From an uncultured Clostridia bacterium (GTDB taxonomy: Bacteria; Bacillota; Clostridia; TANB77; CAG-508): DNA of 64,000 nucleotides. The notes beneath the pieces were generated by a model. The model was not told the origin of the DNA, made no database searches, and saw nothing but the letters and a program-made list of their open reading frames with translations. The stretch lies in assembly GCA_944386755.1 (NCBI GenBank), contig CALXCF010000007.1, forward strand, positions 1,970 through 65,969, in the 5' to 3' direction. The stretch's first letter is position 1. The number at the start of each line of letters is the position of its first letter. Below are positions 2,571 to 62,106 of the stretch, piece by piece. Both the position numbers and the translations under genes were made by a program.

Positions 2571-2628
2571 GAAGATGTGTCCCAGAATGGACAAAAATGT
2601 CCAAACGGAAACGTCCCTAAACGGACAT
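2571..2628. repeat. Right inverted repeat of the RAYT unit
   Basis: gaagatgtgtcccagaatggacaaaaatgtccaaacggaaacgtccctaaacggacat. It abuts the stop codon of the next gene. Confidence 0.9.
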
Positions 2629-2954
2629 TATGCTTGTTCTTTCTTTTTTCCAAAAGAGATTTCTTGGAATAAGAAGTCATGAACTTTTTCCCATGTGATT
2701 TCTTGGTGTAAAAATTCGTTGATTTCATCTTCAACTTTTTGTTGATATGGTGTTAATTCAACTTTTATTTCTTTGTTCCAGTCGATTTCTTGTAACCAGA
2801 ATGCTTTGAATTTGCTCCAGAATCCTTGTTTTACTAATTTGTTGTTTTCTGGTTGTCTGATTGTTCCTGCATTTTCTGGTTCTTTTCCTATATTTTCTAT
2901 TTCTACTCCTCCGAAAACTCCTGATACTTTGTTTTCTTCTCCTAAATCTGCCAT
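2628..2954 (-). CDS. hypothetical protein (108 aa)
   Basis: ORF 2628..2984. Start placed at ATG 2954 behind AAGGAGGAAAAAAC. No recognisable motifs. Confidence 0.5.
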   Translation of the reverse strand: MADLGEENKVSGVFGGVEIENIGKEPENAGTIRQPENNKLVKQGFWSKFKAFWLQEIDWNKEIKVELTPYQQKVEDEINEFLHQEITWEKVHDFLFQEISFGKKKEQA

Positions 2955-3154
2955 GTTTTTTCCTCCTTTGTAGTTATTACACAAATTATTAATTTATTTA
3001 TACTATATATTTTTTTATTTATCAAGTGTTTTCGTTAATTTTTATATTAAATGTTTGTTACAGCAAAATTACATTTTTGTTACATTGTTCCTATTTTTCT
3101 ACTTTTTACCTTTATTTCTATCAATTATTATTTTCTTCTTTGCAGAGATATTGT

Positions 3155-4507
3155 TTATATATCTACTACTATATGGTCTTTTTTTGCTTCTTTGCATATA
3201 GCTTTTGTTATTTTATTTTCTATACCATCTTTTTTATCCGCACTCTCATTGTTACTTGTATATGCTAATATATAGTTTTTTGTATGTCCTTGATAATGTC
3301 CATTTTTTTCTTCTTCCCAAAGAACTTCTACTGTTTTATTTATGTATTGCTTATTATATTCTTCTTCATTTTTGTCTGATAGTTCAATTAATTTCTGACT
3401 TCTCTTTTCTTTTATACTTCCATCAATTTGTCCTTCCATTTGTGCTGCTTTTGTTCCTTTTCTTTGTGAATATTTGAATATGTGCATTTTATAGAATTTT
3501 ATTTCTTTTAGGAATTGATATGTTGTTTCAAATTCTTCTTCTGTTTCTTGTGGGAATCCTACTATTATATCTGTTGTTAAAATCACATCATCATAATTTT
3601 TTCTTAATATATCAACAATATTTTTAAACTGTTCTGTTGTGTATCTTCTATTCATTCTTTTTAAGGTTTCGTCACATCCACTTTGTAAAGATAAGTGAAA
3701 ATGATGGCATATTTTATCTAGTTTTTTAAGTCTTTCTACAAATTGTTCAGTTATCAATAATGGTTCTATTGAACCTAATCTGATTCTTTCGATTCCTTCT
3801 ATTTTGTTTAATTCTTCTAATAAATCGATTAGTTTGTATTCGCTTTTGAAGTCTTTTCCGTATGATGCTATATGTATCCCTGTTATTACAATTTCTTTTA
3901 TGCCTTCTCTTGCTATATCTTGTGCTTCTTCTATAATCTTATCTGGTTTTCTACTTCTGACTCTTCCCCTTGCATATGGTATGATGCAATATGAACAAAA
4001 TCTATCACATCCATCTTGAATTTTGATGGTCGCTCTTGTTTTTGATGTATATGTTACATCTCCTAAGTCTACAAATTCTTTTTGTTGCATAACATCTTGC
4101 GCTATTACATCAAAACTGTTTTTTTGCTCTGTTTTTCCAGAAGTTTTTTTCTCGTAATCTTCTACTATCTCTACAATTTTACTTTTTTCATTATTTCCTA
4201 TTGCTATATCTATTTCCTCTATATTTTCTATTTCTTTTTGTGCAACTTGCACATAACATCCACATGCAACTATTGTTGCATCTTTATTTTGCTCTTTCAT
4301 TCTTCTTATCATTTGTCTTGATTTTCTGTCTGACATATTTGTTACTGTACATGTGTTTATTACATATACGTCAGCTTTTTCATTATGTTCTACTATCTCA
4401 TATCCTTTATTTTTAAATTGCTGTATCATTGCATTTGTTTCATATTGATTTACTTTACAACCTAATGTTACAAAGGCAACTTTTTTTCTATCATTTATTT
4501 TTTCCAT
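3155..4507 (-). CDS. mtaB: tRNA threonylcarbamoyladenosine methylthiotransferase MtaB (MiaB-like radical SAM)
   Basis: VAFVTLGCKVNQYE N-terminus, radical-SAM CDRFCSYC motif, TRAM-like C-terminus. ATG 4507 follows AAGGAAGG. Confidence 0.85.
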   Translation of the reverse strand: MEKINDRKKVAFVTLGCKVNQYETNAMIQQFKNKGYEIVEHNEKADVYVINTCTVTNMSDRKSRQMIRRMKEQNKDATIVACGCYVQVAQKEIENIEEIDIAIGNNEKSKIVEIVEDYEKKTSGKTEQKNSFDVIAQDVMQQKEFVDLGDVTYTSKTRATIKIQDGCDRFCSYCIIPYARGRVRSRKPDKIIEEAQDIAREGIKEIVITGIHIASYGKDFKSEYKLIDLLEELNKIEGIERIRLGSIEPLLITEQFVERLKKLDKICHHFHLSLQSGCDETLKRMNRRYTTEQFKNIVDILRKNYDDVILTTDIIVGFPQETEEEFETTYQFLKEIKFYKMHIFKYSQRKGTKAAQMEGQIDGSIKEKRSQKLIELSDKNEEEYNKQYINKTVEVLWEEEKNGHYQGHTKNYILAYTSNNESADKKDGIENKITKAICKEAKKDHIVVDI

Positions 4508-4530
4508 CAAAATACCTTCCTTACATAATT

Positions 4531-4566
4531 AAATGTCGCATGAGAAACGTCCCCAATACGACATTT
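4531..4566. repeat. GTCCCC-box hairpin (single unit)
   Basis: aaATGTCGcatgaGAAACGTCCCCAATaCGACATtt. It fills the gap between the mreB stop and the mtaB SD. Confidence 0.8.
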
Positions 4567-4568
4567 TT

Positions 4569-5576
4569 TTATTTGCCTCTTCCTTCTAAGGCATCTAAAT
4601 TATCTAAAGCTTTTCCTGTTCCTAATGCTACACATGATACCGTATCTTGTGCTATCATTACGTTTATTCCTGTTTTTTCTTGTAGTAGTTTATCTAATCC
4701 ATCTACTAAGCAGCCTCCACCTGTCATGTATATTCCTTTATCACTTATATCTGCTGCAAGTTCTGGTGGTGTTTTTTCTAATACTGAATGTACTGCATCT
4801 ACAATCATCATTGCTGGCTCGATTAGTGCTTCTAGCATTTCACTTGATTTTATTGTTACTGTTTTTGGTAGTCCTGTAACTAAGTCTCTTCCTCTTACAT
4901 CCATTTCTGCATCTTGAATTTTAGGATATACGCATCCGATATTTACTTTTAAATCTTCTGCAGTTCTTTCTCCTATCATTATATTGTGTTTTTTCTTTAT
5001 ATATTTAACTATATATTCATCAAATCTATCTCCAGCAACTTTTAAAGATGTACTAACTACTGAACCACCTAGTGATATTACTGCAATATCAGTTGTTCCA
5101 CCTCCAATATCAACAACCATATTTCCACATGGCTTTGATATATCTATTCCAGCTCCTATTGCTGCAGCAATTGGTTCTTCTATCAAGTATACTTTTCTTG
5201 CACCTGCTTGTGAAGCTGCATCTATTACTGCCTTTTTTTCAACCTCTGTTACTTGTGAAGGTATACATATCATAATTCTTGGTGCAAATATGAATTTTCC
5301 ACATACTTTATTGATGAAATGTTTTAACATTTTTTCAGTTACGGTATAGTCTGATATTACTCCATCTCTTAAAGGTCTTGTTGCAACAATATTTCCAGGT
5401 GTTCTTCCTAACATTCTTCTTGCTTCTTGTCCAACTGCTAAAACTTCACCTGTGTTGTTATCTACCGCAACAACTGATGGTTCTCTTAATACGATTCCTT
5501 TTCCTTTTACATATGCAATTACCGTCGCTGTTCCTAAATCGATTCCAATATCTTGTCCTAAGCCAAATTTAAACAT
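4569..5576 (-). CDS. mreB: rod shape-determining protein MreB/Mbl
   Basis: DIGIDLGTATVIAY.., actin-fold ATPase motifs, 335 aa. Confidence 0.9.
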   Translation of the reverse strand: MFKFGLGQDIGIDLGTATVIAYVKGKGIVLREPSVVAVDNNTGEVLAVGQEARRMLGRTPGNIVATRPLRDGVISDYTVTEKMLKHFINKVCGKFIFAPRIMICIPSQVTEVEKKAVIDAASQAGARKVYLIEEPIAAAIGAGIDISKPCGNMVVDIGGGTTDIAVISLGGSVVSTSLKVAGDRFDEYIVKYIKKKHNIMIGERTAEDLKVNIGCVYPKIQDAEMDVRGRDLVTGLPKTVTIKSSEMLEALIEPAMMIVDAVHSVLEKTPPELAADISDKGIYMTGGGCLVDGLDKLLQEKTGINVMIAQDTVSCVALGTGKALDNLDALEGRGK

Positions 5577-61039: not shown

Positions 61040-61249
61040 TCAAATATTTTGTAAAATTTCTATGAAATTATAAATCATGATAATATTAACTGTTGAAAAT
61101 GTTATTAGTGCTATTATTATTGTGGTAAGTAACTTGTGCCTTTTAATTTTTTTATGTATTTTGCTTGTCCAACTTTCACTCCCTATCTGTAATCTGTTTA
61201 GTTTAGTATTGTATCTTATTTGAAAGATTTCGTCTTTTGCGTATTCCAT
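61040..61249 (-). CDS. hypothetical small membrane protein (69 aa)
   Basis: ORF track. One C-terminal TM segment. Confidence 0.4.
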   Translation of the reverse strand: MEYAKDEIFQIRYNTKLNRLQIGSESWTSKIHKKIKRHKLLTTIIIALITFSTVNIIMIYNFIEILQNI

Positions 61250-61436
61250 AAATAATTTCCCCCTTATATTTTTATTTATTATATGTATATGCTAGAGTTT
61301 TTTAAATATTCCTATACATATATATTTTTGTATTTAAATTTCAAATTTGCATTTTTATGTTAATTGTAGTATACTATAATTGTAACCGGAAAGTAATACT
61401 TTCCACGACCCATTTTCGACAAGAGGAGGAGTATCA

Positions 61437-61691
61437 ATGGAAACACTAAAAAAATGGGGGTTCATTATTTTTGTTGGCTTGATATTTGGTTTTGCATATA
61501 TTGCATTTTACAATTATCGGGCATTAGGGGAAATGATTTCAAAATTTCCTCCTGGCATTGTTATTGCTTACCTTCTTGGTGTGCTTTCTACTGATTATTA
61601 CCATAAAAAATTTGGTAAATCAAAAGAAAAGAAATCATCTAAGCTAAAGCAAAACAATACAAAGCCAGCTAACCAGGAGCCAAAGTCTTAA
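61437..61691 (+). CDS. hypothetical small membrane protein (84 aa)
   Basis: ORF track. GAGGAGGAG RBS and two TM segments. Confidence 0.55.
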   Translation: METLKKWGFIIFVGLIFGFAYIAFYNYRALGEMISKFPPGIVIAYLLGVLSTDYYHKKFGKSKEKKSSKLKQNNTKPANQEPKS

Positions 61692-61840
61692 GACTCTGGC
61701 TCTTTCTATTATGGATATTAGATTTAATATTTCGTTTTTTCTAAATTTTCCTAGATTTTATACATATTCTGTGTTATACTTAACTAGAAACTATAAACAA
61801 GGAATATTCCTTAGCTTTCAATTCCCAAAGGAGGGATTGC

Positions 61841-61999
61841 ATGAAGAAAGCACTTGTAGTTTTGTTTAGCTTAATTCTTGGATATTTAATATTTTATATC
61901 TATGAACTTAAGCAATTTAGGAAGCATCATTTTCCTGGTGCTTACCAAACACTTTCCGATATTGCAAAACATCGGAAATGGATAAAAGTGGAGCGGTGA
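61841..61999 (+). CDS. hypothetical small membrane protein (52 aa)
   Basis: Hand translation gives MKKALVVLFSLILGYLIFYIYELKQFRKHHFPGAYQTLSDIAKHRKWIKVER*. AAAGGAGGG RBS. Confidence 0.45.
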   Translation: MKKALVVLFSLILGYLIFYIYELKQFRKHHFPGAYQTLSDIAKHRKWIKVER

Positions 62000-62016
62000 T
62001 ACCTCTCCACTTTTTA
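61984..62016 (+). terminator. rho-independent terminator
   Basis: AAAAGTGGAGcggtgatacctCTCCACTTTTTATT. Confidence 0.7.
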
Positions 62017-62044
62017 TTAATAACTCTTTTAGCCAAAACCAAGC

Positions 62045-62106
62045 AAAAGTTGCGTCCCAAAACTATCCAAAAATGGTCAGTCCGAACCTGTCCCCAAACT
62101 AACCAC
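62045..62106. repeat. two-box GTCCC element forming the 3' end of uvrC (homolog of 47057-47118, inverted)
   Basis: aaaagttgCGTCCCaaaactatccaaaaaTGGTCAGTccgaacctGTCCCCaaACTAACCAc. Confidence 0.9.

Follow-up and report, generated by a model that had tools for sequence, protein, structure and literature searches.

GTCCC-tagged hairpin repeats of a gut Clostridia clade and their likely pairing with RAYT/TIRYT-type Y1 HUH transposases

The stems of repetitive extragenic palindromes (REPs) with a GTAG tag also differ among families, and the Y1 transposases that have been studied cut outside their hairpins. In the known logic of such repeats, a common tag is combined with hairpins particular to each family, and each enzyme has its own family (Quentin et al. 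2018, PMC6006769); the REP-associated tyrosine transposases (RAYTs) use tag, stem and loop to differing degrees and co-evolve with their REPs, and a parallel of REP substrates with attC and relaxase substrates has already been drawn (Corneloup et al., PMC8266576). RAYT-like genes flanked by terminal inverted repeats have been named TIRYTs and their arrangement the TIRtron; the motif GGGGWSAS is common to many of these terminal repeats, some of which are dispersed as families (Di Nocera et al. 2013, PMC3733652). TIRYTs have in turn been equated with TnpA_Y1 subclass 2.1, long proteins with a C-terminal helix-turn-helix (HTH) of the Bac_DnaA_C, HTH_23 or HTH_28 type, ~58-67 aa between the HUH motif and the Tyr and a conserved Ser motif just past the core; a search for REP-like sequences belonging to this subclass is reported to have found none (Quentin et al. 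2018, PMC6006769). Here we describe dispersed hairpin elements built around the box GTCCC(C), together with a Y1 HUH transposase gene bracketed by inverted copies of them, in a window of 64,000 nt from an uncultured Clostridia bacterium (contig CALXCF010000007.1, GCA_944386755.1, positions 1,970-65,969). We consider it likely that the elements belong to a GTCCC-tagged superfamily of REP-like hairpin repeats, each family of which has its own domesticated RAYT/TIRYT-type Y1 HUH transposase.

Box-bearing hairpins and their word families

The unit common to all copies reads W - ~8 nt - YGTCCC(C) - 2-5 nt - W', so that the box sits within a ~16-nt loop. Most copies have an extra 5' part, in which a first box is followed after 2-4 nt by another W' and a loop of 3-8 nt (usually 4-6), and because this part precedes the universal unit, the middle word W is able to pair with either W'. 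Fourteen box-bearing hairpin units were identified in the window; they occupy 12 loci, have a density of one per 4.6 kb and are all intergenic (between open reading frames, ORFs). There are 17 GTCCC-enclosing hairpins (W-N4-14-GTCCC-N0-6-W', stem perfect over 5 bp or more), compared with 2.5 in 200 dinucleotide shuffles, where the maximum was 8, and direct GTCCC pairs 30-40 nt apart number 9 against 0.08 expected. An earlier reading, made from the sequence alone, had named a comparison of this grammar with shuffled sequence as its check; when run, the full grammar, meaning that each of the two hairpins has a perfect stem of 5 bp or more, was found in 5 of the 9 two-box pairs and never in 300 shuffles. 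The loci listed in that reading are all present, at coordinates that are exact or a few bases off and with the words it gave. GTCCCC itself occurs 27 times in the window against 4.2 expected; about half of this excess comes from family B of the ribosomal-protein operons (8.3-26.4 kb), an element of different grammar that the earlier reading did not list and that is described in the last section.

The window has a GC content of 28-33%, is dominated by minus-strand genes and contains the S10/spc/alpha ribosomal-protein cluster. Its DNA is also found in gut metagenome assemblies, and its nearest relatives are metagenome-assembled genomes (MAGs) labelled uncultured Clostridia or Clostridium, whose orthologous regions share 90-95% nucleotide identity with it. 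For comparison, species-representative genomes were scanned with a 22-mer of the A2 family defined below, which yielded 8-kb blocks from 14 MAG assemblies, at least 111 in number (813 kb); these A2-selected blocks and the window make up the 877-kb set to which the following counts refer, and L-numbers such as L056, L116 or L146 are labels of comparison loci from sister genomes, relatives and metagenomes. The set contains 164 direct two-box pairs, 112 with a spacing of 36 nt and 31 with 34 nt. Both hairpins can form in 117 of the 164, and in 108 the middle word is common to both, as expected from the claim that the central word pairs with either flanking copy. The alternative-hairpin architecture is thus real and conserved.

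Four word families are present in the window, and the words are not freely exchanged among boxes. A perfect stem of at least 6 bp made of the family's own word accompanies 90% of A1, 93% of A2 and 83% of A3 box contexts, compared with only 2-5% when unrelated 5-mers of matched composition serve as the control. Each box context is therefore tied to one word family, and the proposal that stems are free modules within a genome does not hold. The covariation of the stems does: stem position 6 of A1 is G:C, C:G or T:A, three Watson-Crick types, and the words on the box-1 side track it (TGGACA, TGAGACA, TGCGACA). The pairings are under constraint or homogenised, yet box context and word move jointly as families. 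Of 43 distinct A1 units, about 9 are chimeric, their left and right arms coming from different sub-families and meeting inside the box or the loop.

Family A1 (word ATGTC(C/G/T); box-2 G positions 1552-, 2613+, 4549+, 26765+ and 28310-) includes the two copies next to the transposase gene, treated in the next section. It also has a single unit at 4531-4566 (plus; ATGTCG-catgagaaacGTCCCcaata-CGACAT), kept at the orthologous site in sister genomes, and another at 28295-28326 (minus; TGTCGCA..GTCCCC..TGCGACA; z = -3.6 for the single-stranded DNA, or ssDNA, fold). The hairpin reported as single at 26748-26780 is real but forms part of a two-box element at 26724-26780 (plus), with box 1 at 26731, a degenerate first hairpin and the stem ATGTCTCAT/ATGAGACAT around box 2 (z = -3.8). 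Family A2 (word AGGGATT; 29486+, 47184+, 50148-, 50187+, 58341-) has two-box elements at 29445-29503 (plus; AATCCCT/AGGGATT/AATCCCT; z = -4.6) and 47141-47201 (plus; z = -3.5), the latter kept at the orthologous site in L138. At 50132-50204 two inverted A2 units make one long REPIN-like palindrome (-32.4 kcal/mol, z = -10.7), both arms of which depart from the orthologs identically (aggaaC vs aggacC). Family A3 (word TGGTCAGT; 47073-, 62090+) is represented by a two-box element at 47057-47118 (minus; AGTAGCCA/TGGTCAGT/ACTGACCA), whose ortholog in L138 has box 2 deleted. Two further listed copies are present but decayed, folding as ssDNA no better than shuffles: an A2 two-box element at 58329-58385 (minus; z = -0.7) and an A3 two-box element at 62046-62106 (plus; z = -0.1), the second hairpin of which is broken (TGGTCAGT vs ACTAACCA). 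Family A4 (word GTGCA(A); 53298-, 53376+) consists of a two-box element at 53286-53336 (minus; words TTGCAT/GTGCA/TTGCAC), a segment missing at the orthologous site in L073, L138 and L032, and an inverted unit at 53340-53388 (plus; TTGCACCAtttgGTGCAA + acacGTCCCcaTTGCAC), which had been taken for a two-box locus and is indeed a unit, but without box 1. Intact copies fold as ssDNA with -6 to -11 kcal/mol (z -2.5 to -4.6).

The complement of elements varies among strains and species. The A2 site after a prolyl-isomerase gene is empty, single or double depending on the strain, units are gained and lost between direct W' copies across strains and species, and the A4 pair (53286-53388) stands where three sister species have unrelated sequence; many copies are also kept at orthologous sites. 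Between two convergent genes at 31722-31742 lies an A2-word hairpin without a box (CAGGGATTaaaAATCCCTG), and the L085 ortholog has a full two-box A2 element directly beside the same hairpin, which is either the remnant of a deletion between direct repeats or a preferred target.

Two side observations concern the first hairpin. In two-box A2 elements of the 877-kb set its loop is rich in either A or T, as though the central palindrome were invertible; in co-directional spacers, T-rich loops are antisense in 23 cases and sense in none, and A-rich loops antisense in 13 and sense in 5, a polarity that may reflect strand composition bias. Another family, A5, seen in L029, L076, L089, L103, L104 and L110, reads ggtctGTCCCtttt-[variable small hairpin]-ttttggcaYGTCCC; its two boxes are conserved, the central hairpin varies among copies (GTTTCA/TGAAAC, TGAACAA/TTGTTCA), and the third word after box 2 is usually absent. 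Rfam, searched with gathering and E-value thresholds, contains no family for the GTCCC-box elements or for family B. A box 15-mer gave 18 isolated matches in viral contigs, none with a hairpin, and we regard these as chance matches.

The transposase gene and its bracketing elements

A gene for a RAYT/TIRYT-type Y1 HUH transposase of 257 aa lies at 1636-2409 on the minus strand, with its ATG start at 2409. The protein has an N-terminal Y1 domain (Pfam Y1_Tnp, 1e-14) in which the HUH motif is H60/H62 and the Tyr is Y119, all three invariant in 20 homologs. A profile of these homologs had a sole match among PDB sequences, 4ER8, the E. coli TnpA_REP, and the AlphaFold model of the protein (predicted local distance difference test, pLDDT, 89) had 4er8 as its top Foldseek match, ahead of IS608 and ISDra2 TnpA. 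The distance from H60/H62 to Y119 is 57-59 aa and W137, S138 and S139 are invariant, in agreement with the HUH-Tyr distance and Ser motif of subclass 2.1. The C-terminal extension of ~110 aa is helical and confidently predicted. HTH_23 was detected in it weakly (E = 0.013-0.18) in 3 of 10 homologs, and the best Foldseek matches of a separate C-terminal model were DNA-binding domains (domain IV) of DnaA, not significant (E >= 1). Neither Pfam on the window sequence nor the profile against PDB sequences gave a significant match for this domain, and an hhalign comparison with E. coli DnaA domain IV was negative. We tentatively assign the 257-aa protein to TnpA_Y1 subclass 2.1, with which TIRYTs are probably synonymous, on the grounds of its length, its Ser motif and the weak HTH hits.

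Inverted A1 two-box elements bracket the gene, each with box 1 on the gene side: one downstream at 1537-1594 (minus; gaagatgtGTCCCagaaTGGACAaaaaTGTCCAaacggaaacGTCCCcaaacGGACAT), the other upstream at 2571-2629 (plus; z = -2.5). This is the REPtron/TIRtron arrangement. The sequence-only reading, which linked the boxes to a RAYT, had listed the upstream copy and overlooked its partner across the gene; the link is borne out, with inverted copies bracketing the gene both in the window and in relatives. No tnpB adjoins the gene. Every genome sample has a single copy, always in the same chromosomal place, and the 877-kb set contains only its orthologs and one distant paralog, so that the gene behaves as a vertically inherited one and not as part of a multicopy insertion sequence. 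Immediately upstream of the gene is a small ORF at 2628-2984 (minus; 108 aa as called in assemblies) that belongs to no Pfam family; an ORF of 104-128 aa occupies the same place in every syntenic relative examined, and in the window its stop codon abuts the upstream A1 element.

Homologs with 65%, 56% and 53% identity to the RAYT share the locus mreB / radical-SAM / orf108 (the small ORF) / RAYT / radA / disA. Upstream of the distant homologs synteny ends at tsaE/tsaD, the ribosomal-protein operons not being reached within 10 kb. Inverted flanking copies are also present around the RAYT in L056, L080, L116, L140, L144 and L146. Their words change with the lineage, from TGGACA/TGTCCA in the window to TGAGACA/TGTCTCA in L056, TGCGACA/TGTCGCA in L116 and TTGCTCC/GGAGCAA in L146/L149, and the boxes (aagatgtGTCCC and gaaacGTCCC) and the 34-nt spacing are identical in all of these. 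The L146/L149 element, aagatgtGTCCCcaaTTGCTCCaaaaGGAGCAAaaagaaacGTCCC, thus keeps boxes and spacing unchanged around an unrelated word, and these flanking elements at one syntenic locus are the best case for the claim that boxes are conserved while stem words differ wholly and still pair. L144/L148 retain the ATGCGACA words with the box context ggtctGTCCCC, and at the non-syntenic homolog L142 the stem TGTCGCAT/ATGCGACA encloses a loop with GAACC instead of GTCCC. Read in reverse complement, box 1 is GGGGACAC in L124, L139, L146 and L149, which fits GGGGWSAS (PMC3733652); both copies in the window, tGGGACAC, lack one G of the motif.

The RAYT itself diverges far more than its surroundings. Between sister genomes the products of radA, orf108, radical-SAM and mreB are 96-100% identical, compared with 66.5% (L056) and 60.5% (L116) for the RAYT, and nucleotide identity falls from 96-100% to 53-85% solely between the two flanking elements (window ~1500-2630 against L056 and L116). 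The hairpin words differ along with the RAYT allele. This pattern points to replacement of the divergent RAYT cassette, or else very fast co-evolution, and it bears on how these domesticated transposases co-evolve with their repeats.

A second RAYT-like paralog of 259 aa (L123:4002-4781), in a sister MAG, is 34% identical over the Y1 domain and has an A2 two-box element 230 nt upstream. The L123 block had been picked for its A2 content, and homologs of this paralog were therefore sought in metagenomes of the Joint Genome Institute (JGI) by protein alone. The homologs (L155-L162, L165) come from human-gut metagenomes. Those at L155, L156, L157, L159 and L161 (~50% identity) are bracketed by inverted AGGGATT-type units; L162 is bracketed by GTCCC units with the words GAGAC/GTCTC, and L165 has a GAAAC/GTTTC GTCCC unit upstream of the gene. 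There appears to be one enzyme per word family, as described for REP families (PMC6006769).

Comparison with known systems and competing explanations

The elements fit the TIRYT picture and add to it clear covarying hairpins and a high copy number. In common with TIRYT/TIRtron systems there is a RAYT-like Y1 protein with a long C-terminal extension, bracketing inverted repeats with GGGGWSAS, and dispersed copies that are often dimers; the covarying hairpins, the copy density and the Clostridia host set the present case apart. With the REP/REPIN-RAYT systems (E. coli TnpA_REP, 4ER8; Pseudomonas, Stenotrophomonas) it shares a domesticated single-copy Y1 HUH gene between inverted repeats, and short palindromes outside genes whose tag is conserved and unpaired. 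In both, each enzyme has a repeat family of its own, inverted doublets occur (here 50132-50204), and the repeats favour convergent and co-directional spacers. Unlike in those systems, the common unit holds its tag in a ~16-nt loop, the usual arrangement is a direct 'one-and-a-half' unit (tag-W'-loop-W-spacer-tag-W') instead of an inverted doublet, and the protein is ~90 aa longer. The first hairpins of A2 resemble CGTC-tagged REPs (Di Nocera et al. 2013), in which a CGTC/TGTC tag is followed by 8-9 bp stems starting with A-T and loops of 4-5 nt: tag, A-T stem start and loop size fit (box 1 and first hairpin, for example, cCGTCCCtaAATCCCTaaaagAGGGATT), a resemblance only, and CC plus 2-3 nt separate tag and stem here. 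CGTC REPs have a CCA tail, no known transposase and no report from Firmicutes (Di Nocera et al. 2013, PMC3733652).

Rolling-circle HUH Rep origins offer a functional analogy, with an HUH enzyme, a conserved motif in a hairpin loop and covarying lineage-specific stems, and not a membership, since no replicon is involved here. IS200/IS605 insertion sequences typically comprise several near-identical tnpA copies flanked by left-end and right-end hairpins, often beside tnpB; here, neither multiple tnpA copies nor an adjoining tnpB is present, and IS608 and ISDra2 TnpA are weaker structural matches than TnpA_REP. Integron attC sites would imply an IntI tyrosine recombinase, cassette arrays and R''/L''-L'/R' core sites that include extrahelical bases; the elements here are single, placed between housekeeping genes and tied to a Y1 HUH gene. 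The sequence-only reading had contrasted the elements with classical REPs, which would conserve the palindrome itself, and had likened them to attC; this contrast is smaller than stated because varied use of tag, stem and loop, co-evolution and the attC parallel are all on record (PMC8266576), and GTAG REP stems vary too. We read the system as an unusual variant of the REP-RAYT kind and not as a kind of its own.

Let us consider how such a system might work. The elements would be non-autonomous REP-like repeats of a gut Clostridia clade (29% GC) in which YGTCCC(C) replaces GTAG as the tag. Each word family would be served by a single-copy transposase at a fixed chromosomal position, bracketed by inverted copies of its own family, A1 (ATGTC words) by the gene in the window and A2 (AGGGATT) by the second paralog elsewhere in the genome. 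On ssDNA, the enzyme would recognise the tag together with the hairpin of family-specific words and then cut and rejoin near the tag, so that units spread or are deleted, converted and recombined. Because the middle word can pair with its copy on either side, the tag might be presented either at the 5' base of a short-loop hairpin, in the manner of REPs, or inside the ~16-nt loop. What the sequences show directly is the repeats, how far they exceed chance, their covariation, the REPtron layout in several lineages and the association of family with paralog; we infer binding, cleavage, the active strand and any role of the two alternative folds. One may go further by analogy, tentatively and with more doubt than confidence, and suppose that GTCCC(C) is the cleavage and joining site of TIRYT-class enzymes, presented in a hairpin loop as in rolling-circle Rep origins; the shared middle word would then be a two-state switch choosing the exposed tag, the box-joined chimeras would be footprints of enzyme-catalysed strand exchange, and the same logic could supply CGTC/TGTC-tagged REPs with their missing enzyme.

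Several points weigh against the REP-like interpretation. The canonical GT[AG]G tag is absent, YGTCCC(C) standing 2-4 nt 5' of the first hairpin or in the loop of the second, and the best NCBIfam model of the 257-aa protein, REP_Tyr_transpos, scores 60 bits, under its cut-off of 80. The A2 paralog is known from a sister genome and metagenomes, outside the window, and a RAYT paralog for A3 or A4 was not found in the sequences examined. As naked ssDNA, the box-in-loop hairpins are of modest stability (the -6 to -11 kcal/mol given above) on account of their ~16-nt loops. Finally, repeated words make the ends of filled and empty sites ambiguous, and transposition cannot be distinguished there from slippage or W'-W' recombination.

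In the model of the sequence-only reading, one enzyme reads the conserved box only, and the stems are free, interchangeable modules, close in logic to attC or guide-type sites. The box is indeed kept across RAYT divergence to 53% identity while words are wholly replaced, and the chimeric A1 units, with arms of different sub-families joined in box or loop, also speak for it. Within genomes, however, each box context is closely bound to its word, AGGGATT units bracket another RAYT paralog, words at one locus change along with the RAYT allele, and L142 retains its stem around GAACC, so that we think this model unlikely. No integron-type recombinase is implicated either, a statement made with no scan for intI or attC core sites.

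Placement in the genome bears on another possibility, that the elements are kept mainly for an RNA role, as intrinsic terminators or mRNA-stabilising hairpins, with the transposase link secondary. In favour of it, they lie downstream of genes and are ~1.9-fold enriched in convergent spacers (they are ~2.4-fold depleted in divergent ones); some second hairpins stand between A and T tracts (for example aaaCAGGGATT..AATCCCTGttt), and the box-less hairpin of the same word at 31722-31742 lies between convergent genes. In co-directional spacers, however, antisense placements of the GTCCC strand outnumber sense ones by 81 to 34, the direction being the same in 8 of 8 genomes (replication and transcription bias are not separable here), and the mRNA has no U-run after the hairpins in this commoner orientation. 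A terminator would have no use for the conserved tag or for the 34/36-nt spacing, and the REPtron layout recurs in independent lineages. The terminator reading, tested by orientation and loop polarity, was unsupported, and a mainly RNA-level role strikes us as quite unlikely.

Another explanation that we judge very unlikely is that the elements are double-stranded sites for an HTH protein, be it a nucleoid protein or the RAYT-like protein acting through its C-terminal domain, and that their hairpin potential is incidental. Such a protein would read direct repeats of GTCCC-N2-3-word, and the fixed box spacing of 34 or 36 bp, the helical C-terminal domain with its weak HTH_23 hits and the non-significant DnaA domain IV match would suit it. 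Compensatory changes nevertheless maintain the pairing of W with both W' copies, single units retain stems of 7-14 bp, and no HTH assignment is significant. That the palindromes spread and turn over by replication slippage, gene conversion and recombination alone, with no transposase activity, would agree with gain and loss of units between direct W' repeats and with chimeras joined at the box, their sole shared sequence, as microhomology predicts, but is highly improbable given that it leaves unexplained the dispersal to hundreds of unlinked intergenic sites, the new A4 pair in place of unrelated sequence and the fact that RAYT paralogs repeatedly lie between copies of their own family.

If the REP-like reading is correct, the clade offers a candidate hairpin substrate for TIRYT/subclass 2.1, the second largest TnpA_Y1 group, for which none has been reported, and REP-type repeats would extend to gut Clostridia. 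This candidate is a short, well-defined sequence for which nature supplies swapped stems, variants of the box and the enzyme alleles that go with them, so that recognition and cleavage-site choice are directly testable with oligonucleotides.

Family B and other repeats

Family B, the source of about half of the GTCCCC excess, is a ~100-nt element with 12 copies in the window, all on the minus strand and between ribosomal-protein cistrons (8371-8476, 10179-10281, 11597-11698, 15796-15898, 17466-17568, the partial 17574-17643, 19483-19587, 19989-20087, 20379-20483, 21807-21910, 22282-22386 and 26332-26434). It occupies 11 junctions of the S10/spc/alpha cluster, namely S19/L22, L22/S3, L29/S17, S17/L14, L14/L24, S8/L6, S5/L15, infA/L36, S11/S4, rpoA/L17 and the spacer upstream of S10, and ends ~10 nt before each next Shine-Dalgarno sequence. 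An nhmmer search of the 813 kb of other sequence found one copy, between the L35 and L20 genes of a sister genome (L106:1319-1418). A conserved 5' module, GGGCGAATCAC..TTCACGAGGGGA, leads into a long hairpin, GGGGACAttcctt...aaaggtgTGTCCCC. The outermost pair of its stem is G-C in 6 copies and A-U in 5, and the element folds better on the mRNA strand (-33 vs -25 kcal/mol). More distant relatives (L151, L152) have diverged copies at these junctions, without GTCCCC. We considered and rejected family B as an inverted doublet of the GTCCC elements in view of its restriction to ribosomal-protein operons, its mRNA-strand fold and these diverged copies; it is probably a separate, older element acting at the RNA level and is a candidate for a new cis-acting RNA of ribosomal-protein operons. 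Upstream of the copy that precedes S10, the segment 26560-26654 (minus) matches the S10-Clostridia ribosomal-protein leader below threshold (27.3 bits; gathering score 35.1).

A third repeat, aaaaaattgGTCCCccttttaaggatatccaccaattttttt, is present in three near-identical copies at ~46288-46328, ~51422-51462 and ~56081-56121 (plus). It contains GTCCCCC without following the grammar of the elements, and its A-tract/T-tract stem resembles a bidirectional terminator. A related 'aaggatatcc' stretch adjoins A5-type elements in L029 and L076.

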